NCBI GenBank assembly: GCA_964245355.1
Contig: CAXTMT010000001.1
Span: forward strand, 15,895-79,894
Length of the DNA stretch: 64,000 bases
Direction: 5' to 3'
Source: an uncultured Sphingomonadaceae bacterium
Lineage (GTDB): Bacteria > Pseudomonadota > Alphaproteobacteria > Sphingomonadales > Sphingomonadaceae
Shown here: piece by piece, positions 12,124-56,513 of the stretch
Layout: each line of letters opens with the position of its first letter
How positions within the stretch are numbered: position 1 is the first letter of the stretch
Notes under the pieces: model-generated
Databases searched by the model: none
What the model saw: only the letters and a program-made list of their open reading frames with translations
Told to the model about the DNA's origin: nothing
Translations under genes and position numbers: made by a program

Positions 12124-13677
12124 ATGTTGCGGAAACGAGAACCGGCTCCGCACGGCGTTGTCATGACAAACGCCTTTCCGCTGCTGCTCTCGCTGGTCTC
12201 GGTCGGGGTTGTGACCGCTGCCCTGCTGCCGTTTGATCGAAGCGTCGCGCTCAGCCTCGTCCCGATCACCTATCTCATACCCATCATCGTCGCAGCTACG
12301 CAATGGGGTACCTGGCCGGCCATCCTGGCATCGGTGGCCGCCACGGCGGCGGCGGATTTCTTCTTCACGCCGCCGGTCAACAGTTTTCGCATCGACGACC
12401 CACGAGAGGCTGTCGATCTGGCGCTGTTTCTCATCGTAGCGCTGGTCATCAGCAATCTCGCATCGCGGTTGAGACGCGAGACGCAAGCGCTTCGCGGGCG
12501 GGAGAGACAGCTTCAGTCTCTGTACGAATTCTCGCGCCTGCTTGCCGCCTGCTTCACCGTTTCCGACTTGATTTCGGCGATTCAGAAGCACCTCTCCCGG
12601 ACTTTGGAACGACAAGCCGTATTTTTTCCGGTCGGGACCGATCGACGTCTCGAGTTGCCCGTTCCGAGTTCAGTGCCAAAGGCGGTGCAGGAGAAGATCG
12701 CATCCATGTACGTGGCCCTCAATATGCCGTCTGCCGCGGTGGTCGACGAGCCGACGCAGCATGTCTGGCTGCTCGAGGCGATGTTTTCGGATACGGCGGT
12801 GCACGGCATTGTTGCCGTCAACATCGGAAGCGGCTCAGGCAAGGCCATCGATGTCAGGAAACGGCACGCCAAAACCGTGCTCGAAGAGGTATCTCTGACA
12901 TTCCAACGTCTCGATATCGAAAAAGCGATCGAAGACGCCCGGTTGCACCTGCAGGCACAATTGTTGAGGGATGCGTTTCACGGGACGCTGTCGCACGAAT
13001 TGTGCACGCCGCTGGCGACCATCCGGGGTTCGGCAAGCGTCCTCGATTCGATCCCTGCCGTTCGGGACAACCGTCGGATGCTCTCGCTGGTGGAAGCGAT
13101 AGCGGATGAAGCCGAAGAACTGGATGGCTTCATTCGAAACCTCCTGAGCGCAACGCGGGTATCGGCTGGCAATATCGTCCCGGTTCTGGAATGGACAGAT
13201 CCGGAAGACATCATCCGTGCGGCGATCAAGCGAAGGGCCCAACGTCTTGCGGCCCACCGCATCGAAATCGAATTTGCGAACGAATTGCCGCTCGTGAGAG
13301 TGGATTCCGGACTGATGGAGGAAGCTTGCGGGCAACTGCTCGAAAATGCCGCCAAATACTCGCCTTCGGGTTCGACGATCTTGGTCCGTATCGTCGATGA
13401 ACAAGGACGGGCCGTCCTTTCGATTTCCGATCAGGGGATCGGCATCACGCCCGACGAGCAAAAGCAGATCGGCAGCAAATCGTTTCGAAGTCCACGCCAT
13501 CAGGCGACGGTTCCGGGATCCGGCCTGGGCTTCTGGATCGCATCCATTTTCGTCAAGGCGAATGGCGGCGCCATCGCGATATCCAGCCGGGGTCATGGGC
13601 AGGGAACAACCGCATCGATCATGCTGCCGGGTGTTCCGACGACGCCTTCCGGACCCGCGGGCCTCGCCGATGAATAA
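12124..13677 (+). CDS. KdpD-like sensor histidine kinase (DUF4118 TM + GAF-like + HisKA + HATPase) lacking N-terminal KdpD/USP domains
   Basis: 4-TM segment with DFFFTPP..SF.I, H-box SHELCTPL, N-box LLENAAKYSP, G1 DQGIGI, G2 GSGLG; start uncertain (11998-12163). Confidence 0.88.
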   Translation: MLRKREPAPHGVVMTNAFPLLLSLVSVGVVTAALLPFDRSVALSLVPITYLIPIIVAATQWGTWPAILASVAATAAADFFFTPPVNSFRIDDPREAVDLALFLIVALVISNLASRLRRETQALRGRERQLQSLYEFSRLLAACFTVSDLISAIQKHLSRTLERQAVFFPVGTDRRLELPVPSSVPKAVQEKIASMYVALNMPSAAVVDEPTQHVWLLEAMFSDTAVHGIVAVNIGSGSGKAIDVRKRHAKTVLEEVSLTFQRLDIEKAIEDARLHLQAQLLRDAFHGTLSHELCTPLATIRGSASVLDSIPAVRDNRRMLSLVEAIADEAEELDGFIRNLLSATRVSAGNIVPVLEWTDPEDIIRAAIKRRAQRLAAHRIEIEFANELPLVRVDSGLMEEACGQLLENAAKYSPSGSTILVRIVDEQGRAVLSISDQGIGITPDEQKQIGSKSFRSPRHQATVPGSGLGFWIASIFVKANGGAIAISSRGHGQGTTASIMLPGVPTTPSGPAGLADE

Positions 13678-14631: not shown

Positions 14632-15396
14632 ATGCGACACCAGATCATATGGGCTTTCGCTGCAGGTATTTCATTGGCTCTGAGTGTGACCGGTGCCGCC
14701 GACGCCGCGGATATGGCGGTGAAGGCTCCGGTCGTCGCGCCGATCATCGCCACACCGTGGAGCGGATGCTACATCGGCGGCAATATCGGTGGCGGGTGGA
14801 CCAGGATCGACACGACGCGGGTGCAATCGGACCTGATCGGACCGGATTTTGCGAATTACGGCCGTGAAAAGGACAGCGGCTTTGTCGGCGGCGGCCAGAT
14901 CGGCTGCGACTTTCAGACCGGAAATCTGGTGGTCGGCGTGCAGGGCATGTTCGACTGGGCCAACATCAACGGTCGGCATTTCCTGACAGACTTCCCGACG
15001 TTTTCGGAGACCAACAATCTCCGGTCGATCATCACAGGAACAGGCCGCGCCGGCTGGCTGTGGACCCCGGCGCTGCTCGGCTACGTGAAGGGCGGCGTTG
15101 CTTGGGCAAACAATCGCAATCAGGTGTTCACGCCGGGCGGTACCTTGATCGAGTCTTCCAGCTTCACGGTTCCCGGAATGACGATCGGCGGCGGCTTTGA
15201 ATGGATGTTTGCGCCAAGCTGGTCGGTTTTCGCCGAGTACAATTATTTGTGGTTTCTGAACGATACCGCGACTCACATGGACCCCACTCCCGGCTTCGTC
15301 GGCGAAGTGCTCAACGTGCGCCAGCGTGCGCAAACCGCTTTGGTCGGCATTAACTACAAGTTTCACTGGGAAGGACCGGTAGTCGCGAAATACTGA
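14632..15396 (+). CDS. Omp25/RopB-family outer membrane protein
   Basis: Signal peptide, AADMAVKAP, WSGCYIGGNIG, FAEYNY, GPVVAKY. Confidence 0.9.
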   Translation: MRHQIIWAFAAGISLALSVTGAADAADMAVKAPVVAPIIATPWSGCYIGGNIGGGWTRIDTTRVQSDLIGPDFANYGREKDSGFVGGGQIGCDFQTGNLVVGVQGMFDWANINGRHFLTDFPTFSETNNLRSIITGTGRAGWLWTPALLGYVKGGVAWANNRNQVFTPGGTLIESSSFTVPGMTIGGGFEWMFAPSWSVFAEYNYLWFLNDTATHMDPTPGFVGEVLNVRQRAQTALVGINYKFHWEGPVVAKY

Positions 15397-15423
15397 TCCT
15401 CCCCTTATCCCGGCGAGCGTCTG

Positions 15424-15448
15424 AGCCCCGGTGTTGCCGGGGCTTTTT
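15424..15448 (+). terminator. Rho-independent terminator
   Basis: AGCCCCGG-TGTTG-CCGGGGCT followed by TTTT just after the OMP stop. Confidence 0.85.
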
Positions 15449-15651
15449 CGTGACCGCCCATGCCGCCGGCTATGCGACCTTTATGAGATCACAGCCGGGC
15501 CGGCCTCGATTTATTATCCGGTCCGGACGATATTGCGGCGGACGTTCCAAGCTGCTTCTGCCGAGACCATCCCATCACGTGCAAGCGGTCAATCAGCGAC
15601 GGGACTGTCGATCATATCGGCGCATCTGATCTTTTGTGAAGGAATACCAAC

Positions 15652-15909
15652 GTGAAGCTCGTCGAACCTCCGTCGTGTAGCACCTCGAACAGCATCGTCT
15701 TCATCGGCAAAAACGGCCGTGGCAACTGGGTCGCCCAGGAACAGAACGGCCTTTATGGCGGGTTGTTCGTCAATCGCGCGCAAGCGGTCAAATATGCGCT
15801 CGTCGAGAACGGCCATCACTCCGAGACCATCATCGAACTGCCGCTTGTCGAACTCGACATGGGCGGCCGGCTCCCGATCGGGGCTGCGGACGCAAGGCGA
15901 GCAGCGTGA
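15652..15909 (+). CDS. Small conserved hypothetical protein
   Basis: FIGKNGRGNWVAQEQNGLYGGLFVNRAQAVKYAL, recognised from memory as a Bradyrhizobiaceae small protein; AAGGA RBS, GTG start. Confidence 0.7.
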   Translation: MKLVEPPSCSTSNSIVFIGKNGRGNWVAQEQNGLYGGLFVNRAQAVKYALVENGHHSETIIELPLVELDMGGRLPIGAADARRAA

Positions 15910-15925
15910 CGATCTTCTGCGCACC

Positions 15926-16029
15926 TTGAGCGCGATGACTTCTCTTCGATTCGTCATCCCGCTTTATCCTTAATGTTTGAGCGTGATCCTTTCGGAAAAC
16001 CGGGTCCCACTTTTCCGGATCATGCTCTA
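15926..16029 (+). repeat. ~100-bp alphaproteobacterial palindromic intergenic repeat (RIME/CIR-like), copy 1
   Basis: Left arm GAGCGCGATGAC..GATTCGTCATCCCGCT, right arm GAGCGTGATC..CGGAAAACCGG..CCCACTTTTCCGGATCATGCTCTA; near-identical to 22964-23067. Confidence 0.85.
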
Positions 16030-16057
16030 GCAGGTGACCGGGTCGAACGGCTGAGCC

Positions 16058-17080
16058 TCAACGGTATTCTTCACGCAGAATCGCCGCGGCCTGCACCATC
16101 GACGATAATTTCCCCTGCGCGACATGACGTGGCAGATACTTCATGCCGCAATCGGGCGCGAGGACGACCCGCTCTTTTGCGATGAAGGGCAATGCCTTTC
16201 GCACGCGTTGCGCGATCACGTCCGGCGTCTCGACATTCATATCCGACAGGTCGACGCAGCCGACCATGATCTGTTTGTCGGAAAGGTCGGCCAGAACGGA
16301 GCAGTCGAGATTGGACTGGGCCGTTTCGATCGAGATCTGCTGACAGGAGCATTGCGCGAGTTCCGACAAGAACGAGTATCCGCTCGGCCGCGCATGGATG
16401 ACGGCGGCATATCCGAAGCAGATATGAACAGCGGTCACTCCCTTGACGCCTTCAAGAGCACGGTTGAGCGCCTTCAAACCATATTCCCTGGCCTTTTCCG
16501 GCCGGGCTTGCAGATATGGCTCGTCGATCTGCACGATATCGGCACCGGCTGCGAACAGGTCCCGAATCTCCTCGCCGACCGCGATCGCGTAGTCCGTCGC
16601 CGCTTCCGATTCGGTGGCGTAGAAATCATTTTGTGCCTGCTGCGCCATGGTGAACGGCCCGGGCACCGTGATCTTGACCTTGCGGTCGGTATGTCGCTTG
16701 AGGAACCGGAGGTCCTCCACTTCGACCGCGTGCCGGCGTCGGATCGGCCCTACGATTCGTGGCACCGGATTGGGATGACCGGACCGATCCAGAGCCGTGC
16801 CGGGATTGTCGAGATCGACGCCGTCCAGAGCGGTGGCGAAGCGATTGGAATAGCTCTCCCGGCGTATTTCTCCGTCAGTGACGATGTCCAGGCCGGCTTG
16901 CTCCTGCGCACGAATAGCCAGAAGCGTTGCATCCTCCCAGGCTTCCTGCAGATAGGGCTCCGGCACGCGCCACAACTCTTTCGCCCTGACGCGCGGCGGA
17001 AACCGGCCGGCGAGCTTTTCTCGATCTATCAGCCATTCAGGCTGCGGATAACTCCCAACGATCGTCGTCGGAAAAAGCAT
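16058..17080 (-). CDS. Core (C-terminal-barrel-only) MetE-family zinc enzyme
   Basis: PTTIVGSYPQP, DIVTDGEIRRESY, QIDEP, Zn ligands VHICFG and PDCG; 340 aa, no N-terminal barrel; AGGAG RBS. Confidence 0.85.
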   Translation of the reverse strand: MLFPTTIVGSYPQPEWLIDREKLAGRFPPRVRAKELWRVPEPYLQEAWEDATLLAIRAQEQAGLDIVTDGEIRRESYSNRFATALDGVDLDNPGTALDRSGHPNPVPRIVGPIRRRHAVEVEDLRFLKRHTDRKVKITVPGPFTMAQQAQNDFYATESEAATDYAIAVGEEIRDLFAAGADIVQIDEPYLQARPEKAREYGLKALNRALEGVKGVTAVHICFGYAAVIHARPSGYSFLSELAQCSCQQISIETAQSNLDCSVLADLSDKQIMVGCVDLSDMNVETPDVIAQRVRKALPFIAKERVVLAPDCGMKYLPRHVAQGKLSSMVQAAAILREEYR

Positions 17081-17170
17081 GGCTGCTCCTGGTTTGTAAG
17101 CACGGGTGAAAGGTTTGAGTTCCGCCGGCAATTGCCGATCCTGTCGCGGCCGGCCGGGCGCACGCTCCGG

Positions 17171-17413
17171 TCAAGGTTCGTCAGACGGACTCAGCCGCAC
17201 ACCCGGCGTCGGATCGCCGATAAATTGAATCCCGGCGCGTTCGAATGCCACGCGAATTTTTTCAACCGTCCGTTGATGAGCGCCGACCGTTTCGTTCAGT
17301 CCTTCAAGCCGGCGCACGGTTGAAACAGCCACGCCTGAACTTCGCGCAAGCTGCTGCTGCTCCCACCCGATCAAGGATCTGGCTGCCTTTATCTGACGTG
17401 TGATCACTAGCAT
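17171..17413 (-). CDS. XRE-family HTH protein
   Basis: ITRQIKAARSLIGWEQQQLA..SGVAVSTVRRLE...AFERAGIQF. Confidence 0.85.
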   Translation of the reverse strand: MLVITRQIKAARSLIGWEQQQLARSSGVAVSTVRRLEGLNETVGAHQRTVEKIRVAFERAGIQFIGDPTPGVRLSPSDEP

Positions 17414-17466
17414 CGCACTGACCTGGGCTGTTGGCGCGCGGCGACCGGAGAATCGGCCTCTTGCCG

Positions 17467-18891
17467 TCAACTACGCGTCATTGAGACCGACGGGGCTATC
17501 GACGGTTCCCTGATGACGGGAACGGCCGTTTCGTCAAGCTGATAACCGGCAAATCGCCGAACGCACAGCATCGCCAGAATTCCTGCCGCGAACGCTCCCA
17601 ACACCAGCGCGGCTGCAGGCGCATAGAATAGCTCGCGCGTCGAGACACTCATCCCGAGCAGGCCGCCTCCGACGATCGGTGCCGCAATCGATCCGATCCT
17701 TCCGAACGCTTGAGCCCATCCTGCGCCGATTGCGCGAACCTGCGTCGGATAGATCATGACCAGAGTGGCGTTGATGCCGAATTGATTTCCGTACACGCAG
17801 AAGCCGGCGCCGGCGATGATTGCCCCGATCAGTTCGGGCGGAAGGTTCGGGATGCCTATGGAGGCGATGAGTGGAATGCCGAGGATGAAGAAACCCACGA
17901 TCGGCAACACTCCCAGCCTGTCAATCAGGAGGGTGAAGACCACGCCACCGGCCAACCCGCCGAGCGAAAACATCGAAGCGGTGACCCCGGCCTGCGCGGT
18001 GCTTAGTCCCGCGGACTGGAGGAGGGTTGGAAGCCAGGTGATCGTGAAGAAGTTGGCAAACTGATTGGTCGCTAGAGCTATCCATAGCGTGGGCGTGATG
18101 AGCGCGAGCCCGGACTTAAAAAGTTGTACCGGCGAAGACCCGCCGTCGGCGGTCCCCGCCGGAACCTCGGTCGTGAACCGGGTCTTCGCATCGATGACGA
18201 TGTCCGGCCGGAGCGCGCGGGCCATTCTGGTGACTTCGCCGTCGTGTCCGCCCTCCTGCACCAGGAACTTCAGCGACTCAGAAATGGTGAGCTGCACCGC
18301 AAGCGCGACGCCGAGCGGCAGCAATCCTCCGATCAAGAGCAGCACGGGCCAGCCGTATTGCGGCACGAGCGCTGCCGCGGCAAAGCCGGGCAGTGCCAAT
18401 CCGGCAGGAACCCCGAACAGCACGATCACGGCAAAGCGACCGCGCAAGCGCTTTGGCGCCACCTCCGCCGCCAGAGCCAGCACGTTCGGAATCATGCCTC
18501 CGAGACCGATCCCCGTCAGGAAGCGCAGCACGACCAATTGCCCGAGCGTTGTCACCATCGTCGTGGCCAAAGTGAGCAGGCCGTAGATGCACAGTCCGAT
18601 GATGATCGCCTTTTTCCTGCCCAAGCGATCTCCGGCCCAACCAAGCAGCGGGCCTCCGACAAAGAGCCCGACGACACCCGCGGTCAACGCGATGGTGAAT
18701 GCCTTCGGCGCGATGCCCCACTGCTTGACCAGCTCGGGCACGACGTATCCGATGACCGCAAGATCGAACCCGTCGCCGACCATCGCCAGCGTGGCGACCA
18801 CCAGAAAAACGATCGAGGACCGCTGCACCGACTGACCGTCGATCAGATCGTTCACATCCATCGCAGATGCAGCCGAGTTCAATTCCGCCAT
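17467..18891 (-). CDS. MFS aromatic acid:H+ symporter (PcaK/BenK-like)
   Basis: DGFD in TM1, GWAGDRLGRK, RFLTGIGLGG, YPT.VRA.G.GW. Confidence 0.9.
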   Translation of the reverse strand: MAELNSAASAMDVNDLIDGQSVQRSSIVFLVVATLAMVGDGFDLAVIGYVVPELVKQWGIAPKAFTIALTAGVVGLFVGGPLLGWAGDRLGRKKAIIIGLCIYGLLTLATTMVTTLGQLVVLRFLTGIGLGGMIPNVLALAAEVAPKRLRGRFAVIVLFGVPAGLALPGFAAAALVPQYGWPVLLLIGGLLPLGVALAVQLTISESLKFLVQEGGHDGEVTRMARALRPDIVIDAKTRFTTEVPAGTADGGSSPVQLFKSGLALITPTLWIALATNQFANFFTITWLPTLLQSAGLSTAQAGVTASMFSLGGLAGGVVFTLLIDRLGVLPIVGFFILGIPLIASIGIPNLPPELIGAIIAGAGFCVYGNQFGINATLVMIYPTQVRAIGAGWAQAFGRIGSIAAPIVGGGLLGMSVSTRELFYAPAAALVLGAFAAGILAMLCVRRFAGYQLDETAVPVIREPSIAPSVSMTRS

Positions 18892-44930: not shown

Positions 44931-45037
44931 CCGGGGACGTGGCTTGTTGAACCGATGTTCGCCGACTGGATGCGGGTTTCCAGCCGCAAGCGGCGAATTC
45001 GGCGTTATTGATCAAGATCATAAACGGGGGCTGCAAC

Positions 45038-46321
45038 ATGTTCGATTGGTATAGCGATCTGGGTAAGCACGGGCGACGCACATTCTGGGCCTGCTTCGGC
45101 GGCTACGCGTTGGACGCGCTGGATGTGCAAATTTACAGCATGGCGATACCAGTTCTCATCAGCATCTCGTTCATCACGAAGAGCGAAGCCGGAACCATCG
45201 CCACGTGCACGTTGGTGCTGTCGGCCGTCGGCGGCTGGCTCGCCGGGATCATGGCGGACAAGCTTGGGCGGGTGAAAACGCTGCAGATCACCGTGCTGTG
45301 GTTCGCCGTTTTCACCGCGCTTTGCGGTCTGACCACTGGCTTCTGGGGACTGTTGGTCTGCCGCGGCCTTCAGGGCTTGGGCTTCGGAGGTGAATGGGCC
45401 GCCGGCGCCGTGTTGATCGGCGAGGTCGTCAGCGCCCGCAATCGCGGAAAGGTCGTGGGCTTCGTGCAGGGCTCCTGGGCCGCGGGATGGGGATTGGCCG
45501 TTGTCCTGGCGACGATCATCCTGACCTTGGTTCCGCAGGATTACGCCTGGCGCTGTCTCTTCCTCATCGGAATCCTGCCGGCAATCTCCACGTTCTTCAT
45601 TCGCCGCCATGTCGATGAACCCGAAGCGTTCACCAAGGTCCAGACCGATGCCGCGTCCGCTCCGGGAACATTGGCCATCTTCGGCCCGCATCTTTGGTGG
45701 ACCACCCTGCGTTGCTCGCTGCTCGCGCTCGGCGCGCAGGGCGGCTACTACGCGATCACCACATGGTTGCCGACCTTCCTGCAGGCGGAACGCCACATCA
45801 CCGTGATCGGCAGCTTCAGCTATCTGCTGATCGTCGTGATTGGAAGCTTCTTCGGCTACATCGTCAGCGCTTATCTCAACGACGCGATCGGCCGGCGGGT
45901 CGGATTTATCGCTTTCGCGATCGGCTCCGGTGTCGTCGTCTACACTTATACACACCTGCCCGTGTCCGACGGGCTCATGATGGTGCTGGGCTTCCCATTG
46001 GGCTTCTTTGCTTCCGGAATCTTCAGTGGCATGGGTCCGCTGTTGACCGAAATGTATCCGACCGAGGTCCGCGCCGCCGGGCAGGGCTTTTGTTATAATG
46101 TCGGCCGCGGACTCGCGGCTTTCTTTCCGCTCCTCGTCGGCATGGCCGCATCCACGCTTGGCCTGGGGAATGCGATCGGCGTATTCGCCGCCGGCGCGTA
46201 CGGGGTCGTCCTGATCGCGGCCCTGCTGCTTCCGGAGACGAAGGGGCAGGAATTGTCGTCATACTCGGATTTGACGGCGCCGACCCCGGTCAAGTCCGGC
46301 CTGGTGAAGGTAGGCGCCTGA
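45038..46321 (+). CDS. MFS transporter (SHS/NanT-like)
   Basis: GYALDALD, ADKLGR, GLGFGGEW, EMYPTEVRA.GQG..YN.GR. Confidence 0.9.
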   Translation: MFDWYSDLGKHGRRTFWACFGGYALDALDVQIYSMAIPVLISISFITKSEAGTIATCTLVLSAVGGWLAGIMADKLGRVKTLQITVLWFAVFTALCGLTTGFWGLLVCRGLQGLGFGGEWAAGAVLIGEVVSARNRGKVVGFVQGSWAAGWGLAVVLATIILTLVPQDYAWRCLFLIGILPAISTFFIRRHVDEPEAFTKVQTDAASAPGTLAIFGPHLWWTTLRCSLLALGAQGGYYAITTWLPTFLQAERHITVIGSFSYLLIVVIGSFFGYIVSAYLNDAIGRRVGFIAFAIGSGVVVYTYTHLPVSDGLMMVLGFPLGFFASGIFSGMGPLLTEMYPTEVRAAGQGFCYNVGRGLAAFFPLLVGMAASTLGLGNAIGVFAAGAYGVVLIAALLLPETKGQELSSYSDLTAPTPVKSGLVKVGA

Positions 46322-46499
46322 TGGCGCCTGCTTGCTGCAGCTCTTGACGTTTAACAATCGGGCAGATCGGCACGGCACGCTTGATGCGATCGCTGGGTCG
46401 ATGCCGATCTGCACGCCCCGACGGGTCGGACGAGCACGACATCATGCTCGACCGTGATTTAAAAACCATCGCCGCCGTTACGTGCGGCAAATGCGCCGA

Positions 46500-47387
46500 T
46501 CACTCGTCGAAGCAGAACAGCTTCGCAGGGTTGTCGACCAGGATTTGATGTCTGACTTTTTCGTCCGGAATCCAGTCGAGCAGCAGGTTGACGAGTTCGC
46601 CGCTGTCCCGGCTTCCATCCGTCAGATGCGGCCAGTCCGTGCCCCAGATCGCGCGATCGGGGCGCGCATTGACGATGCCGATGGCGAGATGCTCGATCGC
46701 CTTATAGCCTCTGGCCTTGGCGATACGATAGGGCGCCGAGAGCTTGATCCATGCCCTGCCTTTTTCGATCAGCTTCAGCAACCGGCCGAAGTCGTCGCTG
46801 GTCAGGCCGTCTTCTTCCAGCATGTAACCCATGTGATCGATGACAAAATCGTCGTCCAGCGTTCCGAGAAACGGCACGAGATCGCGAACGACATAGCCCG
46901 GCGTATAGAACTGGATGTGCCAGCCACGCGGCCTTGTCCGCTCCAGCATCCGTGTGATGTAGCGGTGAATGTCTTCCCGCGGCCATGAGGCCCTAGCGAA
47001 CAGATCAAGCCTAATCGCCCGCACGCCGGCGGCGTGATACAAATCGAGATCCTCGTCGCTGACATCTTCCTCGACCATCACCACGCCGCGGGCGCGGGAC
47101 CCCAGTTTCTTCAAGGTGTCGATCGTCAGGCGGTTGTCGGTGCCGTAGTAGCTCGGCTGGACCAGCACCATGCGGTCGATGCCGAGATAATCGCAAACCG
47201 CCAGATATTGTTTGAGCGATCCGTCGGGAAATGTGTAATGCGGCCTCGCGACGGAGGGATAGCCTGGCTCAAACACGTGAAAATGGGTATCGCACGAACC
47301 GGCCGGAAGCATGAATTCCGGCTTGGTATTCGTTGTTGCCTCACGCATGGCGGTCGGCACGAGAATTTCATCGATCGCATTACCCAT
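46500..47387 (-). CDS. Amidohydrolase_2 protein, LigI/galactarolactone-isomerase-like (COG3618)
   Basis: CDTHFH, VQPSYYGTDN, IDHMG, KLSAPYR, WGTDWPH, LVDNP. Confidence 0.88.
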   Translation of the reverse strand: MGNAIDEILVPTAMREATTNTKPEFMLPAGSCDTHFHVFEPGYPSVARPHYTFPDGSLKQYLAVCDYLGIDRMVLVQPSYYGTDNRLTIDTLKKLGSRARGVVMVEEDVSDEDLDLYHAAGVRAIRLDLFARASWPREDIHRYITRMLERTRPRGWHIQFYTPGYVVRDLVPFLGTLDDDFVIDHMGYMLEEDGLTSDDFGRLLKLIEKGRAWIKLSAPYRIAKARGYKAIEHLAIGIVNARPDRAIWGTDWPHLTDGSRDSGELVNLLLDWIPDEKVRHQILVDNPAKLFCFDE

Positions 47388-47412: not shown

Positions 47413-48240
47413 TCAGCTCACAAACTCGGAATGCCATTCCTTTAGATCGTCGCTGCGGTGTTTCGCCGCGTTCCATAGCATTTCGATATCGCTTCCCGAG
47501 ATGATGAACGGGGCGACTCCGAGTGATAAATACTCACGCACAAGACCGAGATTCGAGATGCCGCCAATGACGCAAAGTTTTCCGTTCCGGGCGCATGCGG
47601 TGGCAACATCGACGATACATTCGTGCAATCTCTGGTTCTCGAAATCGCCGGGGATGCCCAGTTCCGCAGACAGATCATTGGCCCCGATCGCGACCATGTC
47701 GACACCGTCGGTCCGGGCGATCGCTTCTGCGTTCGAAACGCCGAGCGGCGTTTCGATCAGGACTTGCACCACGACCGACCGGTCGAGCAGAGGATTGAGA
47801 ATGCGTGCCGGTGTTGGAGCGAAGCCCAATTGCGGCACCATCGCAATTTGCGAACGCTGTCCACGCGGCGCGAACCGGCAAGCGCGCGCAATCTCGGCGG
47901 CCTGATCGGCGGTCTCGATCCGTGCCGCGACGATACCGGACGCACCGCCATCGAGGCAGCGCCCGATCGAGCCGTAGTCGCGCTCCGGAACGCGGACAAA
48001 GGAAAACAGCCCGAGGTCGTTGGCCGTGGACGTCATGGCTGACGCGACATCAAGCGACATCGTGCTGTGCTCGAGATCGACAATGATGCTCTGATGCCCG
48101 GTCGAATGGGCGACGCGAACGACATCCGGCGTCCTGGCGCTTCTGATCATCATCGCGGTGACAAGCTTGCCGCGCTTCAATGTTTCGAGCAGGCCGCAGC
48201 TTCCTGATCTGGCCGAGGCATCCATCTTCATTCCTGTCAT
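47413..48240 (-). CDS. HpcH/HpaI aldolase family protein
   Basis: VDLEH, VRVP, LDGGA.G, RFAPRGQR, LIET, GANDL. Confidence 0.9.
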   Translation of the reverse strand: MTGMKMDASARSGSCGLLETLKRGKLVTAMMIRSARTPDVVRVAHSTGHQSIIVDLEHSTMSLDVASAMTSTANDLGLFSFVRVPERDYGSIGRCLDGGASGIVAARIETADQAAEIARACRFAPRGQRSQIAMVPQLGFAPTPARILNPLLDRSVVVQVLIETPLGVSNAEAIARTDGVDMVAIGANDLSAELGIPGDFENQRLHECIVDVATACARNGKLCVIGGISNLGLVREYLSLGVAPFIISGSDIEMLWNAAKHRSDDLKEWHSEFVS

Positions 48241-48286: not shown

Positions 48287-49486
48287 TCAACGCCGTTTAC
48301 TCAGCGGATATGTCATATTGGTGAAACCGGGTATCACCACTGCTTCCGGCCGGTTGTCGTGATCGCAGAGCTGGTCGATGATGAAATGGGAAACCGAATT
48401 GGCGAGCTGCTGGGTCGGGTCTTCCATCACGAAGCGCAGCCGGGTGATGGCCGTCTGTCTATCGTCCGGCGACCTCAGTCTCGGCATCGCATGAAGGGTC
48501 TTGGTCGCGGCTTCGATCACCGGGGGTTCCTCGATGCTCTTGAGAAACGCGGGATATCCTTCAAACATTCTGCGGGCCAGATCGATGTTCGCCCGCAAAT
48601 GCAGAAATATGTCGCGGAACTGACTTTCGCGCTCGGTCGTCAGCGCGGCGTCCGCGGCGTCCGATGCCGAAAAGGACGGCCCATGCGCCGCGATATGGAG
48701 ATTCTCGACGGGCAACCGGCCTCCCGAAGCGCGCCACAGCAAATGACAGTTGCTTTGAGTGGCCCAGGTCAGGCCCGCGGTGGGCCGTCCGGCGCGGCCG
48801 CTTATCAAAACCATCAGCTTCCTCCAGTCGATGTCGTGCGAGCGCAGCCATCGAATGACGCGATAACCGATGTCGAGATATGTCAGGGCGAAGGTGGCAA
48901 CCATCACATCGTTGATCGGTACCGGAACTTCGGGATTGCCGGCCGGATCCAGAAAGGTCTCACGAAGATTTTCGAACGTCATCCTGGTTTCGTCGGCGAG
49001 ACATCCGGACAGAAACGCGAGGGCGACGTCGCAGGTGTAGTCGACAAGATCCGCGATCTTGGATTCGTATCCCGCCCACGCCTCCACGGCGACTTCGTCG
49101 GTCCAGTAGGTTTCGGTGTTGAACTCGCGAGCCTTTGCCGTTCGATCGATCAATCGTTCGGCGTCGTCCTTCCAGCCGACATAGCCAAGCTCGCGCAGCC
49201 GAAATAACCACGCGATGGCAGGTCCCAGATGAGAGATTGCCGTCAGCTCGACGAAACCGCGGGTCGAATTGCGAAAGCCTTCGACGATCGGTGGTTTTCC
49301 TGCGCCCGGAAAAAGCACGAAGTCCGACCCGGTCACGACCAGCAATGGTTCCTGCCTGGTCAGTTCGACCATGTGTCGGGTGAGATGTAACCCGGTGCTG
49401 TTCGGACCGGTATATGCGTCGTAAAGACTCCGGAACGACGGGTGCGGCTGGTACGTCGTTTGAGGCATTTTTTGTTCTTGATCCAT
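48287..49486 (-). CDS. Conserved-looking protein of unknown function (from memory resembles DUF5624; unverified)
   Basis: 399 aa, no signal peptide, motif-like segments GFVELTAISHLGPA and ISGRAGRPTAG; 25 and 46 bp from its neighbours. Confidence 0.75.
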   Translation of the reverse strand: MDQEQKMPQTTYQPHPSFRSLYDAYTGPNSTGLHLTRHMVELTRQEPLLVVTGSDFVLFPGAGKPPIVEGFRNSTRGFVELTAISHLGPAIAWLFRLRELGYVGWKDDAERLIDRTAKAREFNTETYWTDEVAVEAWAGYESKIADLVDYTCDVALAFLSGCLADETRMTFENLRETFLDPAGNPEVPVPINDVMVATFALTYLDIGYRVIRWLRSHDIDWRKLMVLISGRAGRPTAGLTWATQSNCHLLWRASGGRLPVENLHIAAHGPSFSASDAADAALTTERESQFRDIFLHLRANIDLARRMFEGYPAFLKSIEEPPVIEAATKTLHAMPRLRSPDDRQTAITRLRFVMEDPTQQLANSVSHFIIDQLCDHDNRPEAVVIPGFTNMTYPLSKRR

Positions 49487-49511: not shown

Positions 49512-50597
49512 TTACGTATTCAGGCGATAGACGACCGAATCCTGACGGAAGCGAACCTCCGGTGTCAGGCTGTTTGCCACCGCAATGAAGAGCATGCCGT
49601 CTTGTTCAAACGCGGTCGCTTCGGTACCACCGAAGGTGGGGAATTCTTGCTCCAGTTTCATCCCGCCGCCAGCCCATCGGTAAAGCCGCGACTTCAAGGC
49701 GGTTCGCGGAGCCGAGGGCGCCCCTTCGATAAAATTGACTTGAACCATGAAGAGCTCCCCGCCGGTTCTGAAGACACAAAACTCGCGTCCGCCCGGACCG
49801 CTCAGCGGCTGATGAACGATAAATTCCTGACTATCCCAGCGGTAAAGCAGCGACTCGCCCTGGATATTCGCGAACGCCAGATAGCGCCCGCCCTCGGCTT
49901 CGAAAAAGCGGAAGCAACGCCCGCCCGACGGAGCGAAGCTCTGAAAAGGCACAAAGGACGCGCCGTCCCAACGAAGCACCATCGAATCCCCGACGTGATC
50001 GGCATAGCAAAGGAAATGTTCGTCATCGATATCGAACGATTCCCAATTATAGCCCCACTTGCCGTCAAGAGCCTGAAACGCGACGAAGCAGGACCCATCC
50101 CATTCATAAATGCGGGACTCCCTTGGATTGGTCGCCTCAATATGCCCCAGCGTCACGCCTTGCGCCAAAGCAAGGAATGCGCGGCTTCCGATTTGAAAGA
50201 AATGCCACTGCTTTGCGGCAAATGCCGCGAACGTCTGAAACGGCTCCCAGCTTTCGCCCGATCGTTTGTAAAGCACCTGATCGAGATTGTAGTCGAAGGG
50301 GCCGTGGCCGGCGCGTATCGCAGCGGCGATCAGAAACGCCGCCGCACCGAATTCGAAGAACAGCACGTCTTCGCCCCCGGAGAGCGGCAGCACGCTCTCG
50401 TCAACGAATTGCCCGCCTTCCCAGCGAAAGATCGGAGCCCCGACATCGCTGTCGCCGCCATTCATGTGGGCCGGCGTATCGGGGATATCGCGAGCCAGTT
50501 GCGGAATGATCAGGTATCTTTTACCTGATACCACGAAGGTCGACATGCCCCGCGCGCCAGAGGTCGACAAGCGCTGGTGCTCGACGAGATGACCCAT
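49512..50597 (-). CDS. EAR/EPTP-repeat seven-bladed beta-propeller protein
   Basis: Seven ~45-60-aa repeats F..(F/H)Q.(L/F)...G(G/A)....F...G..(Y/F)L..A....S.(I/L)Y.W.G; GAGGA RBS before ATG 50597. Confidence 0.8.
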   Translation of the reverse strand: MGHLVEHQRLSTSGARGMSTFVVSGKRYLIIPQLARDIPDTPAHMNGGDSDVGAPIFRWEGGQFVDESVLPLSGGEDVLFFEFGAAAFLIAAAIRAGHGPFDYNLDQVLYKRSGESWEPFQTFAAFAAKQWHFFQIGSRAFLALAQGVTLGHIEATNPRESRIYEWDGSCFVAFQALDGKWGYNWESFDIDDEHFLCYADHVGDSMVLRWDGASFVPFQSFAPSGGRCFRFFEAEGGRYLAFANIQGESLLYRWDSQEFIVHQPLSGPGGREFCVFRTGGELFMVQVNFIEGAPSAPRTALKSRLYRWAGGGMKLEQEFPTFGGTEATAFEQDGMLFIAVANSLTPEVRFRQDSVVYRLNT

Positions 50598-50604: not shown

Positions 50605-51858
50605 TCAACTCGCTTTCGGCTTGACGAATTCGATTGCGCCGTAGGCGACGGCAGCCAGCAGCGTGAAGATCGCAACGATAACGAACAGGAATTCCGAGTC
50701 GACCTGCCAGGTCAGGAGCTGGCCGCCGATCATGGGCCCCGCAATCGCGCCCAATCTGCCAACGGCGAACTGGCAGCCAGTTCCGGTCGCCCGTATTTTT
50801 CGGGGAAAGATATTGACGGCCATTGCCGGCGCGTTCTGGTTGCCTCCAATGGCAAACAGCCCAGCAACAAACAGGCCTGCAAAAAACGTCGTGTTCGTCG
50901 GGGTCAACTGGCCGAGCATGGCGATAGCAACCGCACCCAGCACGACCATCACCGCCACAGGCCGGAACAAGCCGTATTTCCTGACGACAATCATGGACCC
51001 GATCGCTCCGACGATCCCTCCGAGATTTAGGAATACTCCGCACAACGCCGCGCTGGCCGGCGACATCCCTGACTTGACGGCGATCATCGGCGTCCAGCTA
51101 TTGAGCAAATACGACACCAGCAGCATGCAGAACACGCCGAACATCATGCAGATGGTGGCCCATAGACGCCCTTCCATGAACAAAGCCCGAATCGATGAGA
51201 TCCGGCCGGTTTTTTCGCCTTCCCTTTCCGCGCCCGATCGCGACGCTGCAAAGGATTCCTTCAGAAGAAATGCGCCGGGCATCACGGCCAATGTCAGCAT
51301 TCCGGCACCGACAAACAGCGTTCGCCATCCGTGGTGGATGAGAATCGATGTCAGCGCGCCACCCACGACCGCGCCGAAAGGAAAGCCCACGAACATCATC
51401 GTTACGGCGGTGTCGCGTTTTTCTCTGGGAAAGTGCTCGGCTACCAGCGGGATCACCGCAGCCAGGACGCCGCCGAGGGCGAAACCCGCGATCAACCGAT
51501 ACGCGGCGAGCTCGGCGAACGACGTTGCCGTGGAGCACAGGATTGTGGCTGCTCCGGCGACGGCCAGCGATGCCGTCAGCACCGGGCGGCGCCCGAGACG
51601 ATCGGCAACCGGACCCAGTATCATGCCGCCCAGCATCGAACCTGCCAAACCCGCGGCAAAGATCTGACCCACGCTGATATGCGTGAGGTTCAATTCGGAG
51701 GTAATCAGCGGCACCAGAAAAGATACGATGAAAATATCGTAGCCATCGACCATCACCAAAAGAAAGGCAAAAGCCAGCAGCAGCAGGGGCGCGGCCTGTT
51801 CGCCGTCAACCGATGCGTTCACTCCGTTTTCCTTGGCAAGAAGCACGATATCACCCAC
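50605..51858 (-). CDS. MFS aromatic acid:H+ symporter-like transporter
   Basis: DGYD, GPVADRLGRR, GFPFG, FP.KIRATG.G. Confidence 0.88.
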   Translation of the reverse strand: MGDIVLLAKENGVNASVDGEQAAPLLLLAFAFLLVMVDGYDIFIVSFLVPLITSELNLTHISVGQIFAAGLAGSMLGGMILGPVADRLGRRPVLTASLAVAGAATILCSTATSFAELAAYRLIAGFALGGVLAAVIPLVAEHFPREKRDTAVTMMFVGFPFGAVVGGALTSILIHHGWRTLFVGAGMLTLAVMPGAFLLKESFAASRSGAEREGEKTGRISSIRALFMEGRLWATICMMFGVFCMLLVSYLLNSWTPMIAVKSGMSPASAALCGVFLNLGGIVGAIGSMIVVRKYGLFRPVAVMVVLGAVAIAMLGQLTPTNTTFFAGLFVAGLFAIGGNQNAPAMAVNIFPRKIRATGTGCQFAVGRLGAIAGPMIGGQLLTWQVDSEFLFVIVAIFTLLAAVAYGAIEFVKPKAS

Positions 51859-51926: not shown

Positions 51927-51952
51927 AAAAAAGGGCGCCGCTCGCGGCGCCC
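51927..51952 (-). terminator. Rho-independent terminator after the SphA-like gene
   Basis: Minus strand GGGCGCCG-CGAG-CGGCGCCC-TTTTTT. Confidence 0.75.
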
Positions 51953-51978: not shown

Positions 51979-52977
51979 TTACTTGTAAAGCAGCGGCCGC
52001 TTCAGGGCGACGGGCTCTTCGGGAGCCCATATCCTGAAGCTGAGGTTGGCGAAAACCTTGTACCCTTTTGTGACCGATGCGGTGTCGACCGCCGAGCCGG
52101 GAGGTCCACCGCCCCAGGCCTTCGCGTAAAACTCGTCGACGGCCCACACGTTCAGCGCCGCCGGCCCGAAATTGTATCCGACGAGGGCGCCCGCGGCGTA
52201 GATGTCGAACCGATTCGTGTTGATGGACTGGCGATAGAATGCGCTCGACGTATCGTCGGTAATCTGACCTACGTAGTAGCCGACCGGCCCGAGCGTCCAC
52301 TTTCCGATGGACTTGGTGGCGGTGAACTCCGCGTGCAAGACGTTACCCGATCGATAGTTGGTGATGGTGTTGGCGGTATTTATTTCTTCCGACAAGAAGG
52401 CGGTTAGATTCCATCCGTTCTTGAGGTAGGACAGGAAAATCTCCGGCTGAAACGTCCACCACGGGTTTCCTATGCTGCCGAGTCCGTTGGCGCCGCTAAC
52501 CGTCCCGTCCGGCACGTATATTCCCAAACCGGTTTTCACGGCAAATCCGCTGTCACCGAATCTCCAGCTCAACTCGCCCGGGACGATATATGTGTTGTGC
52601 GCTCCCGCTTTTTGCAGGTTCACGGGCGCGCCGACGTCGAGCATCGAAACCGGCTGCACCAGAACCGCGTCATAAGCGGCGCCCAGAAACGTCCATCCCG
52701 GCACATAAAGAAAGCCGACGGCAGTCGACGCGAGATGAACGGGTACTCCACCCCCGAGCGGCGCGCCCGGACCTACGATAGTCGATTGCGTCGTGAAGGT
52801 CTGATTGAACATGTACAGGCCCGGGCCCGGCGTGCCTGCCGAAGCGCCGATAACGATACCGGGCATCTGTTCCCAACCCGGCGCACCGGCTTCATAGGCA
52901 TTCGCGGATGCGGCGATGCCGATTGTCGCGAAACTCAACACCGCAGCAGCGCGACGCAGTCGATTGCTGATCATCAT
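51979..52977 (-). CDS. SphA / Phenol_MetA_deg family outer-membrane channel (paralog of 32301-33284)
   Basis: Signal peptide, PGPGLY, GLGIYVPDG, GNPWWTFQPE, YRSGNVLHAEF, GYYVGQITDD. Confidence 0.82.
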   Translation of the reverse strand: MMISNRLRRAAAVLSFATIGIAASANAYEAGAPGWEQMPGIVIGASAGTPGPGLYMFNQTFTTQSTIVGPGAPLGGGVPVHLASTAVGFLYVPGWTFLGAAYDAVLVQPVSMLDVGAPVNLQKAGAHNTYIVPGELSWRFGDSGFAVKTGLGIYVPDGTVSGANGLGSIGNPWWTFQPEIFLSYLKNGWNLTAFLSEEINTANTITNYRSGNVLHAEFTATKSIGKWTLGPVGYYVGQITDDTSSAFYRQSINTNRFDIYAAGALVGYNFGPAALNVWAVDEFYAKAWGGGPPGSAVDTASVTKGYKVFANLSFRIWAPEEPVALKRPLLYK

Positions 52978-53304
52978 GTTTCCCCCAGACCACGTTGTTA
53001 GATACTGATACAAAGTCCGCGTGGGGGACGGATCGACCTTCGTCCCTCGTTCGCTTCCTTCACACGTTTCTTTTCTTTTGCCCGATCTTGCACTCGCATT
53101 CGAAGGCGTCAATTCGGGTTTGGCGTTTGAAAGATATGTAAAACAAATCAATGTCCGGATCTGGATCGGCGGCGGCTTCTATGGCGCCGAGGCTTCCGGT
53201 CATAGGGCGGTTGTGATGTGAGGAGCAGCCGGAAGGCAATCCCTCGGCGCCAGCCGGCGCCATGAATTTGCAAGCGGCTCGGACGGCCGCGCATTCCCGA
53301 ACGC

Positions 53305-53536: not shown

Positions 53537-54544
53537 TCAGACCGCCGACGTCATCGTCTTGCGGGATTTGTTTGCGGGCCGCTTTTTAGAGCGCTTGTTT
53601 TTGTTTTTCGGGCTGCCTGCCGGCTGTTGCAACCGGTACGATCCATTCCACGTCAACGTTTTCGCGCGCGCCATCTGGCTCAGATTTGCGATGCGGAAGT
53701 CCGCTTCGCCTGCCCGATAAACCATCAAAAGCTCGGTCAGCGCGTCCTCATCTGCCAGCGGCACGTAGGCAATGTTGGGTATGCCGATATACCGCAGACT
53801 CGACGGTACCACCGCGATGCCGAGGCCGGTCGCCACGAGACCGATGATGGTCGACGCTTCTTTGGCTTCCTGAACGATCGCGGGCGCGAAAGAACGCTTC
53901 GCACAGAGCTGGATGAAGTAATCGTAGATGCCGACGCCATAGGATCGCGGATAGAATATAAAACGCTCGTGACGAAGATCGGCCAGTACGATTTTTCTTC
54001 TCTTATGAAGAGGATGTGTCGGATCCAATGCGACGACCAGCGGATCAGTGAGAAGCTTCGTCGTCGTAATGTCCGCTGGAGGCTTGAACCCTGGCGGCGT
54101 CCGGATAATCCCAACGTCCAGTTCCCTCGCCTGCAGCGCGGCCAACTGTGTCGAAGACGTCATGTCCTGCAGCACGACGCGGATGTCGGGGTATTTGGTC
54201 CGGAACGCGTGCACGAGGCCCGGAAAAAACGACAGCAAGGACGACGCGGCGGTGAAGCCGATGCGGAGCTCTCCGGCTTCGCCATCCAGCATCTTGCGAA
54301 TCTCGCCGACGGTCCGGTCGATCCTGGCGAGAATGGAGCAGCCATTCTCCCGAAGCACCAAACCTATTTCCGTCAATTCAACCCGTCGGCGCGTGCGATG
54401 GAAAAGCTTCCCGCCGAGTTCGCGTTCCAGCTCCTGAATCGCAAGGGATAACGGAGCCTGCGTCATTCCCAAGCGCTCCGCCGTCTTGCGAAAATGAAGC
54501 TCCTCCGCGAGAACGATAAAATAGCGCAACTGATTTATCTTCAC
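53537..54544 (-). CDS. LysR family regulator
   Basis: QLRYFIVLAEELHF.KTAERLGMTQAPLS..I.ELE.ELG..LF.RT.R.VELT; GTG start with GAGG. Confidence 0.93.
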   Translation of the reverse strand: MKINQLRYFIVLAEELHFRKTAERLGMTQAPLSLAIQELERELGGKLFHRTRRRVELTEIGLVLRENGCSILARIDRTVGEIRKMLDGEAGELRIGFTAASSLLSFFPGLVHAFRTKYPDIRVVLQDMTSSTQLAALQARELDVGIIRTPPGFKPPADITTTKLLTDPLVVALDPTHPLHKRRKIVLADLRHERFIFYPRSYGVGIYDYFIQLCAKRSFAPAIVQEAKEASTIIGLVATGLGIAVVPSSLRYIGIPNIAYVPLADEDALTELLMVYRAGEADFRIANLSQMARAKTLTWNGSYRLQQPAGSPKNKNKRSKKRPANKSRKTMTSAV

Positions 54545-54871
54545 GGCGCCTCTCAATCCATACGATCTCGAACGGCAACCAGGCTGGCGGCTCGGGCAAA
54601 TACTCCTTTAGATCAACCCTCACGCTGGAACCTCATCAATTGCTTTTATAAATCAACGAAGCGCCTTGAACAATCGTCCTCTGTTTTGAATGCAGAATTT
54701 ACTATCGCTCGTTTGAGATCGCGATAGCGCCACGCTGCTTGAGCGGCGACGGAATCCTTGTCGGCTCAACGGCAGTTCGATCAGCGCCGTTCTTTTAGGT
54801 CGTAGTGCATCGCTGAAAGACCTGCGGCTCGTTTTATCGGACTTGATAAATCGAACGGGACAAAACAAATA

Positions 54872-55388: not shown

Positions 55389-55475
55389 TGTCCCTGCGCG
55401 CGCATTCCTCGTTCGACAACGGCGTCCATTCGACTGACGGACTGCACAGACGCATGGCGGTCCTTGGAGGTTAAG

Positions 55476-56513
55476 ATGATCGGTGACATTTTCGTTTTCG
55501 ACAACGTGATCCACCTCTACGATCTTTCACCGGAAAACCTGCGCACGGAGCGCAGCGATTCCGGGCCGAGCCGTCAGCAAACCCTCGAAGAGACGTCGCG
55601 CATCCGGACTCCGGGAGAACCGCCGAACGACGATCCCTCGTTTGACTGGGGCCGTCGGTGGTCAACGGCGGAAATGCACGACCTGGTGTTTTCCAGGTCG
55701 CCCACTGACATGGCGATGGCCCAGACCGTGCCGATGTTCGACTGGTTTCGCGATTGGTACGCTCCGGTCAAGACACAGCATGCGATGGCGGCCGCCTATC
55801 CCGAAAAGGTGCTGTTCTGCGGCGGGGTCGATCCTATGTTCCGGGGAATGCAGGATGCACTGGAACAGATCGATTATCAGACCAAGGTGCTCGGAGCGCG
55901 GTCGTTCAAATTTTACAACGGTCACGCCGAGGTAAAGGACTGCTGGCGATGCGACGATCGGAAGGTCGCCTACCCGCTTTACGAGCGGGCGATCGCTAAC
56001 GGGATAAACGTGTTGCAATTCCACAAAGGCAATCCTCACGGATTGCAGAACATGGAGTATCTAAGTCCGCTGGACCTGCAAGCGCCGGCGCGCGATTTCC
56101 CCCACGTGCAATTCATCGTCCATCACCTCGCGATGCCGTACTTCGACGAGATGTTGTCCATCGCAGCCCGTTTTCCGAATATTCATCTTTCATTGGCAGG
56201 TCACGTCGCTTTCTATCGGATTGCCCCGCGACGTTTCCAGGAGCAGATGGGCCGGCTACTTCAAGTCGTGGGAGCTCACAAGATTCTATGGGGCTCCGAA
56301 GCCGCCCTGGCAGGCGGACCGGCGCCGTATCTCAAGGCTTTCATGGATTTTGAGATACCGCAGGATCTTCGCGCCGGTTACGGATATCCCCAGATTACCA
56401 TCGAAGACAAACGCGCGATCTTGGGCGAGAATTTCGCGGCCCTGATGGAGGTCGACATCGAGGCCAAGAAGTCCGAGCTAGGCTTGTCCGGTAAAACGGC
56501 CGTGCTCGCATGA
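55476..56513 (+). CDS. Amidohydrolase_2 family protein with atypical metal motifs
   Basis: FDNVIH, FKFY, FHKG, DFP.VQFIVHH, KILWGSE, KRAILGEN; GGAGG RBS. Confidence 0.85.
   Translation: MIGDIFVFDNVIHLYDLSPENLRTERSDSGPSRQQTLEETSRIRTPGEPPNDDPSFDWGRRWSTAEMHDLVFSRSPTDMAMAQTVPMFDWFRDWYAPVKTQHAMAAAYPEKVLFCGGVDPMFRGMQDALEQIDYQTKVLGARSFKFYNGHAEVKDCWRCDDRKVAYPLYERAIANGINVLQFHKGNPHGLQNMEYLSPLDLQAPARDFPHVQFIVHHLAMPYFDEMLSIAARFPNIHLSLAGHVAFYRIAPRRFQEQMGRLLQVVGAHKILWGSEAALAGGPAPYLKAFMDFEIPQDLRAGYGYPQITIEDKRAILGENFAALMEVDIEAKKSELGLSGKTAVLA

Follow-up and report, generated by a model that had tools for sequence, protein, structure and literature searches.

Locus and gene organization

The stretch of DNA analysed here, referred to as the window, comprises 64,000 nucleotides from an uncultured Sphingomonadaceae bacterium (assembly GCA_964245355.1, contig CAXTMT010000001.1, positions 15,895 to 79,894 of the forward strand), and our subject is a gene on its minus strand that codes for a 361-amino-acid propeller of the EPTP/EAR family. 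This gene is part of a tight operon with the genes for a major facilitator superfamily (MFS) transporter, a protein of the DUF5624 family, an HpcH/HpaI-type aldolase and a LigI-type lactone hydrolase. The EPTP and DUF5624 proteins may, with a probability of roughly 0.5, constitute a novel two-component enzyme, a hydratase/isomerase or a cycloisomerase that is cofactor-independent or uses a simple metal and is fused in some bacteria and ascomycetes. Such an enzyme would contain the first catalytic EPTP propeller and would define a new lactone-to-pyruvate pathway in soil bacteria of at least five phyla and in fungi. The features of the locus are as follows.

46469..46490, minus strand: terminator-like hairpin right after the last operon gene (consensus match only)
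46500..47387, minus strand: LigI-type lactone hydrolase (Amidohydro_2, COG3618); best PDB match LigI 4d8l, E 1.5e-38, full length
47413..48240, minus strand: HpcH/HpaI-family class II pyruvate aldolase (Pfam PF03328, E 1.1e-24)
48287..49486, minus strand: DUF5624 protein, 399 amino acids, starting 25 bp past the EPTP stop (Pfam PF18538, E 3.4e-43)
49512..50597, minus strand: EPTP/EAR propeller, 361 amino acids, cytoplasmic, seven-bladed (sequence, Pfam, structure model)
50605..51858, minus strand: MFS transporter of the aromatic-acid/H+ symporter type, with which the tight five-gene operon begins (Pfam MFS_1, E 1.3e-48)
51933..51952, minus strand: terminator-like GC-rich hairpin and T run between the outer-membrane channel and MFS genes (eight G-C pairs, then TTTTTT; consensus match only)
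51979..53151, minus strand: outer-membrane channel of the Phenol_MetA_deg family (Pfam PF13557, E 2.2e-22)
53537..54556, minus strand: LysR-family regulator, upstream of the cluster and on the same strand (Pfam HTH_1 and LysR_substrate)

The five operon genes, in the order MFS transporter, EPTP, DUF5624, aldolase and hydrolase, are separated by gaps of 7, 25, 46 and 25 bp, and terminator-like hairpins lie on both sides of them. The EPTP open reading frame (ORF) is intact and runs from an ATG at 50597 to a stop codon at 49512, with a GAGGAA Shine-Dalgarno motif 4 nt ahead of the ATG and the stop codon of the upstream MFS gene 7 nt before it, and its start residue agrees with the start of its homologues. 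An earlier note on this DNA had placed a cytoplasmic propeller between a transporter and catabolic enzymes, and the neighbouring genes show that it was right on both counts; the minus strand, which it left unstated, is the only correction to that observation.

Sequence and predicted fold of the propeller

The protein had also been described in the earlier note as seven tandem repeats of the EAR/EPTP pattern with no signal peptide, and all of this was borne out. The repeats start at LVEHQ (residues 4-8), FVDES (64-68), WEPFQ (117-121), FVAFQ (171-175), FVPFQ (215-219), FIVHQ (259-263) and MKLEQ (314-318), and their strands end in IFRW, LYKR, IYEW, LRW, LYRW, LYRW and VYRL, respectively. The Pfam search that the note had called for matched EPTP (PF03736) at 156.5 bits against a cut-off of 21 (E 1.6e-46), which is far above chance, with six repeats scored separately; the seventh is not scored by Pfam but is evident in the sequence and in the structure model. 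PF10282 was absent from the Pfam matches of the propeller at E <= 1, and an NCBIfam search returned no family. By sequence, the solved relatives are the EPTP domains of LGI1 only (E 3e-8 with the single sequence and 9e-21 with the family profile). Because the N-terminus is polar and itself forms a propeller strand, there is no signal peptide. EPTP is the sole domain in the 361 residues, and the protein lacks any leader and any leucine-rich repeat, LamG or G-protein-coupled receptor context, so that the marks of an animal-type EPTP protein (secretion with a signal peptide, partner domains, an interaction module) are not those of the window protein.

The structure was modelled with AlphaFold2 from a 41-sequence alignment, which replaced an unusable single-sequence model (predicted local distance difference test score, pLDDT, of 46.5). 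The resulting model has a pLDDT of 95 and a predicted template modelling score of 0.92, and consists of seven blades of four strands each, the seventh being closed by the N-terminal strand 4-10. When the model was compared with the PDB by Foldseek, as the earlier note had proposed, the LGI1 EPTP domain was the top match (E 2e-16, template modelling (TM) score 0.75-0.83) and the next family reached only 1.6e-8. Of the solved folds, the EPTP domain is therefore the nearest to the predicted one, by a clear margin over other propellers. The closest ESM Atlas clusters were a bacterial 'EPTP domain-containing protein' (TM 0.98), TSPEAR (0.86), and LGI2 and LGI4 (about 0.8). Propellers of PF10282 were not among the best 50 structure matches, and one PF10282 cluster of the Atlas was found at TM 0.78. 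The analogy that had been drawn with YbhE/Pgl and the fungal carboxymuconate cycloisomerase CMLE is a functional one only.

Residues of the same alignment were assigned to the strands and loops of the model, and those conserved in 90% or more of the sequences were compared. Twelve conserved polar residues fall in D-A or B-C loops, against one in the A-B or C-D loops. In the usual propeller topology, the D-A and B-C loops make up one face. Within the strands, most conserved polar residues are the first two or three of the inner A strand (E76/D77, K129/Q130, Y183/N184, R227, R271/E272 and T325), R16 immediately precedes strand A of blade 1, and the last residue of the B strands is also among the conserved polar positions (Q146, D200, N288 and N342). 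By this topology, the strand-start and strand-end residues all point to the mouth of the channel. Mapping conservation onto the central channel had been suggested before, and the conserved polar residues do ring its mouth, as read from strand topology and not from coordinates. The long polar loops at 31-53, 94-103, 147-160 and 289-299 are highly conserved and correspond in the model to the B-C loops of blades 1, 2, 3 and 6, the same loops that, according to the earlier note, could line an active site.

The core conserved set is also kept in fungal proteins in which EPTP is fused to DUF5624. LGI1 lacks most of the conserved polar residues. In the profile alignment, N184, E186, D200, H201, R227 and E272 correspond to A, K, R, F, M and S of LGI1, and since LGI1 differs at these positions, the charge ring is specific to the clade and not part of the EPTP signature.

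Linkage and fusion with DUF5624

A pattern scan of 185,579 species genomes yielded 32 loci, whose neighbouring genes were found by tblastn with the neighbour proteins of the window. A DUF5624 gene is in the same operon as EPTP in all 32 (Proteobacteria, Acidobacteria, Actinobacteria, Verrucomicrobiota and one bin labelled Melainabacteria). In 28 of them this gene is the next one after EPTP in the downstream direction, with a stop/start overlap in several, and an MFS gene stands between the two at four Paraburkholderia and Caballeronia loci. Of the 30 loci with sufficient flanking sequence, 26 had both the HpcH aldolase and a LigI-like hydrolase in the retrieved region. EPTP, DUF5624, the aldolase and the LigI-type hydrolase are the constant core of this module, and no recurrent gene for an oxygenase, a dehydrogenase or a CoA enzyme was seen in the surveyed loci. 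Linkage of the homologues to metabolic genes, on which the earlier note had made its reading depend, was thus found both for the catabolic enzymes (26/30) and for DUF5624 (32/32).

The two families are also joined in single proteins, which were sought among longer sequences and whose domains were checked with Pfam. EPTP-DUF5624 fusions of 770-920 amino acids (P0122, P0123, P0128, P0312 and others) occur in bacteria and in fungi such as Clonostachys, and P0131 and P0137 have the reverse order, DUF5624-EPTP; because both domain orders exist, fusion occurred at least twice. The ascomycetes Talaromyces, Penicillium, Trichoderma and Cladobotryum have triple fusions of about 1080 amino acids, in which an alpha/beta-hydrolase follows EPTP and DUF5624 (P0125, P0129, P0135, P0139 and P0290). 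The bacterial fusion P0122 is encoded in an operon with the order GntR, HpcH, Amidohydro_2 and fusion gene. There are, in addition, single cases of an SGL-lactonase-EPTP fusion (P0127), whose contig carries no DUF5624, and of an Amidohydro_2-EPTP fusion (P0158), whose C-terminus looks frameshifted, so that EPTP is joined to three different hydrolase folds (alpha/beta-hydrolase, SGL and Amidohydro_2). One operon across phyla and fusion in some lineages mark EPTP and DUF5624 as a putative two-protein unit. By the Rosetta-stone argument, the fusions imply that the two act together and that their reaction is adjacent to the hydrolysis of a lactone or ester. In Talaromyces the fusion gene (L037 10001-13234) has genes for an MFS transporter, a P450 and a COesterase/BD-FAE protein as its neighbours, and genes of the FAA_hydrolase, GST and Glyoxalase families lie 6-9 kb off.

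The only solved relative of the DUF5624 protein is 4jx2, a 'hypothetical protein' and the founder structure of the Pfam family, which a profile search matched at E 9e-49 over positions 32-381. Nothing significant beyond it was found when the profile was searched against the PDB, rubrerythrin (E 0.7) and interleukin-34 being noise, and ESM Atlas searches with the window DUF5624 and its homologue P0216 gave no usable match. A di-iron oxygenase role for DUF5624 was considered and dropped, as the alignment has a single invariant His. Complex prediction for EPTP and DUF5624 returned an ipSAE interface score of 0.00 in both runs, which were made without controls and are evidence neither for nor against binding.

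Distribution and accessory genes

Over 1300 clusters (90% identity) matched the propeller, and none of them has a name other than 'EPTP domain'. The propeller shares 57-65% identity with the proteins of Hyphomicrobiales, Inquilinus, Paraburkholderia, Steroidobacteraceae, and other gammaproteobacterial and Verrucomicrobiota loci recovered, the gammaproteobacterial and Verrucomicrobiota ones being metagenome-assembled genomes (MAGs), and 42-49% with divergent Paraburkholderia/Caballeronia copies, Acidobacteria, Actinobacteria and the bin labelled Melainabacteria; without the divergent copies, this lower range is 42-47%. When 1.84 billion representatives were searched with the profile, 1884 matched at E <= 1e-3, and 453 did so at E <= 1e-30. 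About 30 of the best 150 listed are full-length matches of some 345-425 amino acids, and the remainder are mostly longer proteins in which EPTP occurs in several stretches. None of the genomes searched from a sample of 300 of the same phylum had the clade, which points to a rare or patchy occurrence among sampled genomes and not to absence. The sole match there was a 19352-amino-acid open frame with EPTP-like repeats (G022:C1:432296-435238), which appears to be a giant protein of the cell surface and has no relation to the cytoplasmic clade. The module is patchy among sequenced species and common in metagenomes, and it is present in cultured strains of Paraburkholderia, Caballeronia, Nonomuraea and Streptomyces.

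Around the constant core, the accessory genes vary with the lineage: MFS, LysR and outer-membrane protein genes in Proteobacteria, a Liv-type ABC transporter and a Peripla_BP_6 binding protein in Actinobacteria, and a TonB-dependent receptor and a BD-FAE/Abhydrolase_3 esterase in Gammaproteobacteria, with esterase relatives in eight loci. In proteobacterial loci the MFS homologue is beside the EPTP gene. In NCBIfam the window transporter matches TIGR00895 (248 bits) and MhpT (217 bits), both below cut-off, and TIGR00893 reaches 103 bits. A LysR homologue adjoins the module in 18 of the 32 loci, and the window regulator matches BenM/CatM/HcaR-like NCBIfam families below their cut-offs; a gene of the Phenol_MetA_deg family is also beside the module in L001 and L042. 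The BD-FAE/Abhydrolase_3-type esterase, encoded at L004 3840-5003 and, in related form, in L006, L007, L011, L018, L022, L023 and L029 as well as at L008 13191-14198, occurs in Gammaproteobacteria and Actinobacteria, and its recurrence suggests that the natural substrate may arrive as an ester. A protein of 314-351 amino acids without Pfam match adjoins the module in an acidobacterium-like contig (L033 10326-11270) and in a gammaproteobacterial MAG (L008 5655-6710), with 28-30% identity between the two, and may be a further accessory component. In an uncultured Granulicella (L014), a malate synthase gene at 10327-11895 on the plus strand overlaps the DUF5624 stop by 4 bp and ends an operon of MFS, HpcH, Amidohydro_2, EPTP and DUF5624 genes; it was seen in 1 of 46 loci only.

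Other features of the window lie close to the operon. A second MFS transporter gene (MFS_1/Sugar_tr, 45008-46321, plus strand) is convergent with it and just downstream; an antisense ORF of 316 amino acids at 45005-45955 has no family match and is probably spurious; and an Amidohydro_2 gene (55464-56513, plus strand) opens a plus-strand cluster 1 kb past the LysR gene. A search of sequencing runs listed no RNA run and one DNA run with a share of 0.07 of the sampled words.

A candidate route from lactone to pyruvate

Eight positions, H31, H33, Y49, R124, R130, Y156, H180 and D248, which we take to be the active-site residues of LigI, are identical in the window hydrolase and all 32 module-linked orthologues (33/33). 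The roles of these residues in LigI are reportedly those given by Hobbs et al. 2012. In galactarolactone isomerase (4mup), Gly stands in place of R130 and Asn in place of D248, whereas the module hydrolases keep both arginines and the catalytic Asp. With full-length homology and all eight residues, the window hydrolase belongs with the LigI type; its best NCBIfam match is 4-sulfomuconolactone hydrolase (165 bits, below cut-off). The aldolase has PDB relatives that include 3qz6, HpaI, GarL and YfaU.

LigI, LigU, LigJ and LigK are the 2-pyrone-4,6-dicarboxylate (PDC) hydrolase, the 4-oxalomesaconate isomerase, the 4-oxalomesaconate hydratase and the 4-carboxy-4-hydroxy-2-oxoadipate aldolase of lower protocatechuate 4,5-cleavage. 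By analogy, the module would be a similar four-protein route from a dicarboxylated lactone to pyruvate in which EPTP and DUF5624 take the places of LigU and LigJ. It differs from the Lig route in having no PrpF-type isomerase, no LigJ-type amidohydrolase and no RraA-type aldolase, its aldolase being of the HpcH type. Since no other enzyme recurs in the core, the four proteins must suffice to reach central metabolites, as LigI, LigU, LigJ and LigK do, and since the module has no other enzyme that could link the hydrolase product to the aldolase substrate, EPTP and DUF5624 would be the non-homologous equivalent of LigU and LigJ.

We propose that the LigI-type hydrolase opens an imported anionic lactone, probably dicarboxylated, like PDC. 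EPTP and DUF5624 would then convert the unsaturated 2-oxo/enol diacid formed in this way into a 4-hydroxy-2-oxo acid by isomerisation and/or hydration, the role of LigU and LigJ, and the HpcH aldolase would cleave this acid to pyruvate and a second central metabolite. The substrate would bind to the D-A/B-C loop face around the central channel, where R16, E76/D77, K129/Q130, Y183/N184, R227, R271/E272 and T325 are found and to which the B-C loops would contribute Q33, D37, N46, S50, R95, D200 and H201. The fold, the family, the operon, the co-inheritance, the fusions and the loop positions of the conserved residues are observations; complex formation, catalysis, the order of the steps and the substrate are inferences.

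The same MAG, which is 72% complete, has an apparent canonical protocatechuate 4,5-cleavage cluster on another contig (C10 7000-26999, L046), with a TonB receptor and a FAD monooxygenase near it:

10087-10989, minus strand: LigI paralogue (35% identity to the window hydrolase)
11156-12211, minus strand: PrpF/LigU-type isomerase
12204-13400, minus strand: RraA/LigK-type aldolase
15109-16134, plus strand: LigJ-like Amidohydro_2
16734-17576, plus strand: LigB dioxygenase

Because this genome has the canonical lig set elsewhere, the substrate of the module probably differs from PDC, and PDC itself was down-weighted as a candidate.

Weighing the explanations

That EPTP and DUF5624 are an enzyme unit of this lactone-to-pyruvate route is, in our view, likely; that they act specifically as a hydratase/isomerase after the lactonase is put forward more tentatively. 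The earlier note had suggested an enzyme or a small-molecule-binding protein, and conservation, the polar face, the differences from LGI1 and the hydrolase fusions speak for that suggestion. It missed the coupling to DUF5624, and, being obligatorily coupled, the propeller is probably not an enzyme alone. As far as the sequences indicate, the two proteins probably form a heteromeric enzyme that is a single polypeptide in other organisms.

The pair could instead act before the lactonase, as a lactonising cycloisomerase that turns an imported muconate-like di- or tricarboxylate into a carboxylated lactone, which the LigI/SlmH-type hydrolase would open (a net hydration) before the aldolase cleaves the 4-hydroxy-2-oxo acid. 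We regard this order as doubtful. Neurospora CMLE, a seven-bladed propeller cycloisomerase followed by a lactone hydrolase, is a precedent; 4-sulfomuconolactone hydrolase, the best NCBIfam match of the module hydrolase at 165 bits and below cut-off, acts on a cycloisomerase product; the fungal fusions end in Abhydrolase_1, the fold of enol-lactonases; EPTP is fused to three lactonase/esterase folds; and the transporter is in the MFS family of the muconate carrier MucK (TIGR00895, 248 bits, below cut-off). However, the EPTP propeller has no sequence relation to the PF10282/CMLE propellers, the hydrolase keeps the full PDC-binding signature of LigI, for which a six-membered pyrone fits at least as well as a butenolide, and the reason for a second protein of about 400 amino acids would be unclear. 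It is likewise unlikely that the propeller is non-catalytic and serves as a scaffold, for substrate presentation or in regulation, with its conserved face bound to DUF5624 or to the lactonase and the chemistry left to DUF5624. Characterised EPTP domains are all protein-interaction modules and LGI1-ADAM22 structures are the top fold matches, fusion and strict co-inheritance with DUF5624 are expected of an obligate binding partner, and conservation of one face also fits an interface. Yet charged or polar side chains (R, K, D, E, N, Q, H) predominate among the conserved residues, which surround the entrance of the channel and form no hydrophobic patch. For a mere scaffold, moreover, an identity of 57-65% across alpha-, beta- and gammaproteobacterial and Verrucomicrobiota loci would be high, and the SGL-EPTP fusion occurs without DUF5624.

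We consider it improbable that the propeller itself is a metal-dependent lactonase, esterase or dehydratase, of the SMP30/PON/DFPase type or like aldos-2-ulose dehydratase, acting on a sugar-acid or aldaric lactone from which the aldolase would release pyruvate and glyoxylate or an aldehyde. Inner strands begin with acidic or Asn residues (E76, D77, N184, E272 and D/E326) that may resemble central-channel metal sites, the malate synthase gene is operonic with the module in L014, and relatives of HpcH include the 2-keto-3-deoxy sugar-acid aldolases GarL and YfaU. Against this, the module already has a dedicated lactonase, the transporter is of the aromatic-acid type (TIGR00895 at 248 bits versus TIGR00893 at 103 bits), and malate synthase was present at that single locus only. 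That the EPTP gene stands here by chance and has no part in the pathway, perhaps being what is left of a surface protein in the cytoplasm, could appeal to the large size and the several EPTP stretches of most EPTP proteins in bacteria, but this is effectively refuted by linkage at 32/32 loci across five phyla, by fusion in either order, by the short distances between the genes, by a full-length, intact ORF and by strong purifying conservation.

Several points weigh against the two-component hydratase/isomerase that we favour. The P0127 contig has no DUF5624 and therefore the propeller may have an activity of its own, and the malate synthase of L014 hints at a glyoxylate-yielding substrate, unlike PDC. 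As the MAG carries the canonical LigI/LigU/LigK/LigJ/LigB cluster, PDC is not obviously in need of a second route. The argument for one face is one of strand topology, not of a measured pocket, and the conserved face could equally be a protein-protein interface with DUF5624, as the LGI1 face binds ADAM22. No cofactor or metal motif is recognisable in either the EPTP or the DUF5624 protein, and literature searches (EPTP with bacteria, catabolism or operon; DUF5624, PF18538 and 4JX2) retrieved no paper on a bacterial or cytoplasmic EPTP protein or on DUF5624.

Relation to known systems and implications

EPTP/EAR is known only as an extracellular, protein-binding domain, with LGI1 linked to epilepsy, TSPEAR to deafness and ADGRV1 to Usher syndrome. 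Unlike these animal proteins (LGI1-4, TSPEAR and ADGRV1; PF03736; LGI1 structures 5y2z, 5y31 and 9kzc), the window protein is cytoplasmic, stand-alone and 13-15% identical to LGI1. It has a clade-specific charged ring, and its coupling is to DUF5624 and catabolic enzymes instead of a receptor. Other bacterial EPTP-repeat proteins share the Pfam domain and are catalogued in Pfam, but they are mostly long proteins with several stretches, such as the M28/S8 peptidase fusions P0160 and P0161, whereas the clade described here is about 360 amino acids long, leaderless, paired with DUF5624 and much more conserved. As for the enzymatic propellers, CMLE of Neurospora, YbhE/Pgl (PF10282) and aldos-2-ulose dehydratase (4a7k) have structural scores no better than those of WD40 proteins and work without a DUF5624-like partner. 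The fold family is known, while the partnership with DUF5624, the cellular location and the probable role are undescribed.

Since the module is compact, has its own transporter and regulator and is present in cultured strains, the missing substrate and reaction are directly testable, and lactones or pyrones that derive from lignin, tannin or plants are candidates for the substrate. If our interpretation is true, PF18538 and the bacterial branch of PF03736, both of them orphan families, would gain a function, and the EPTP fold would have an older, metabolic use, from Proteobacteria to Actinobacteria and ascomycetes.

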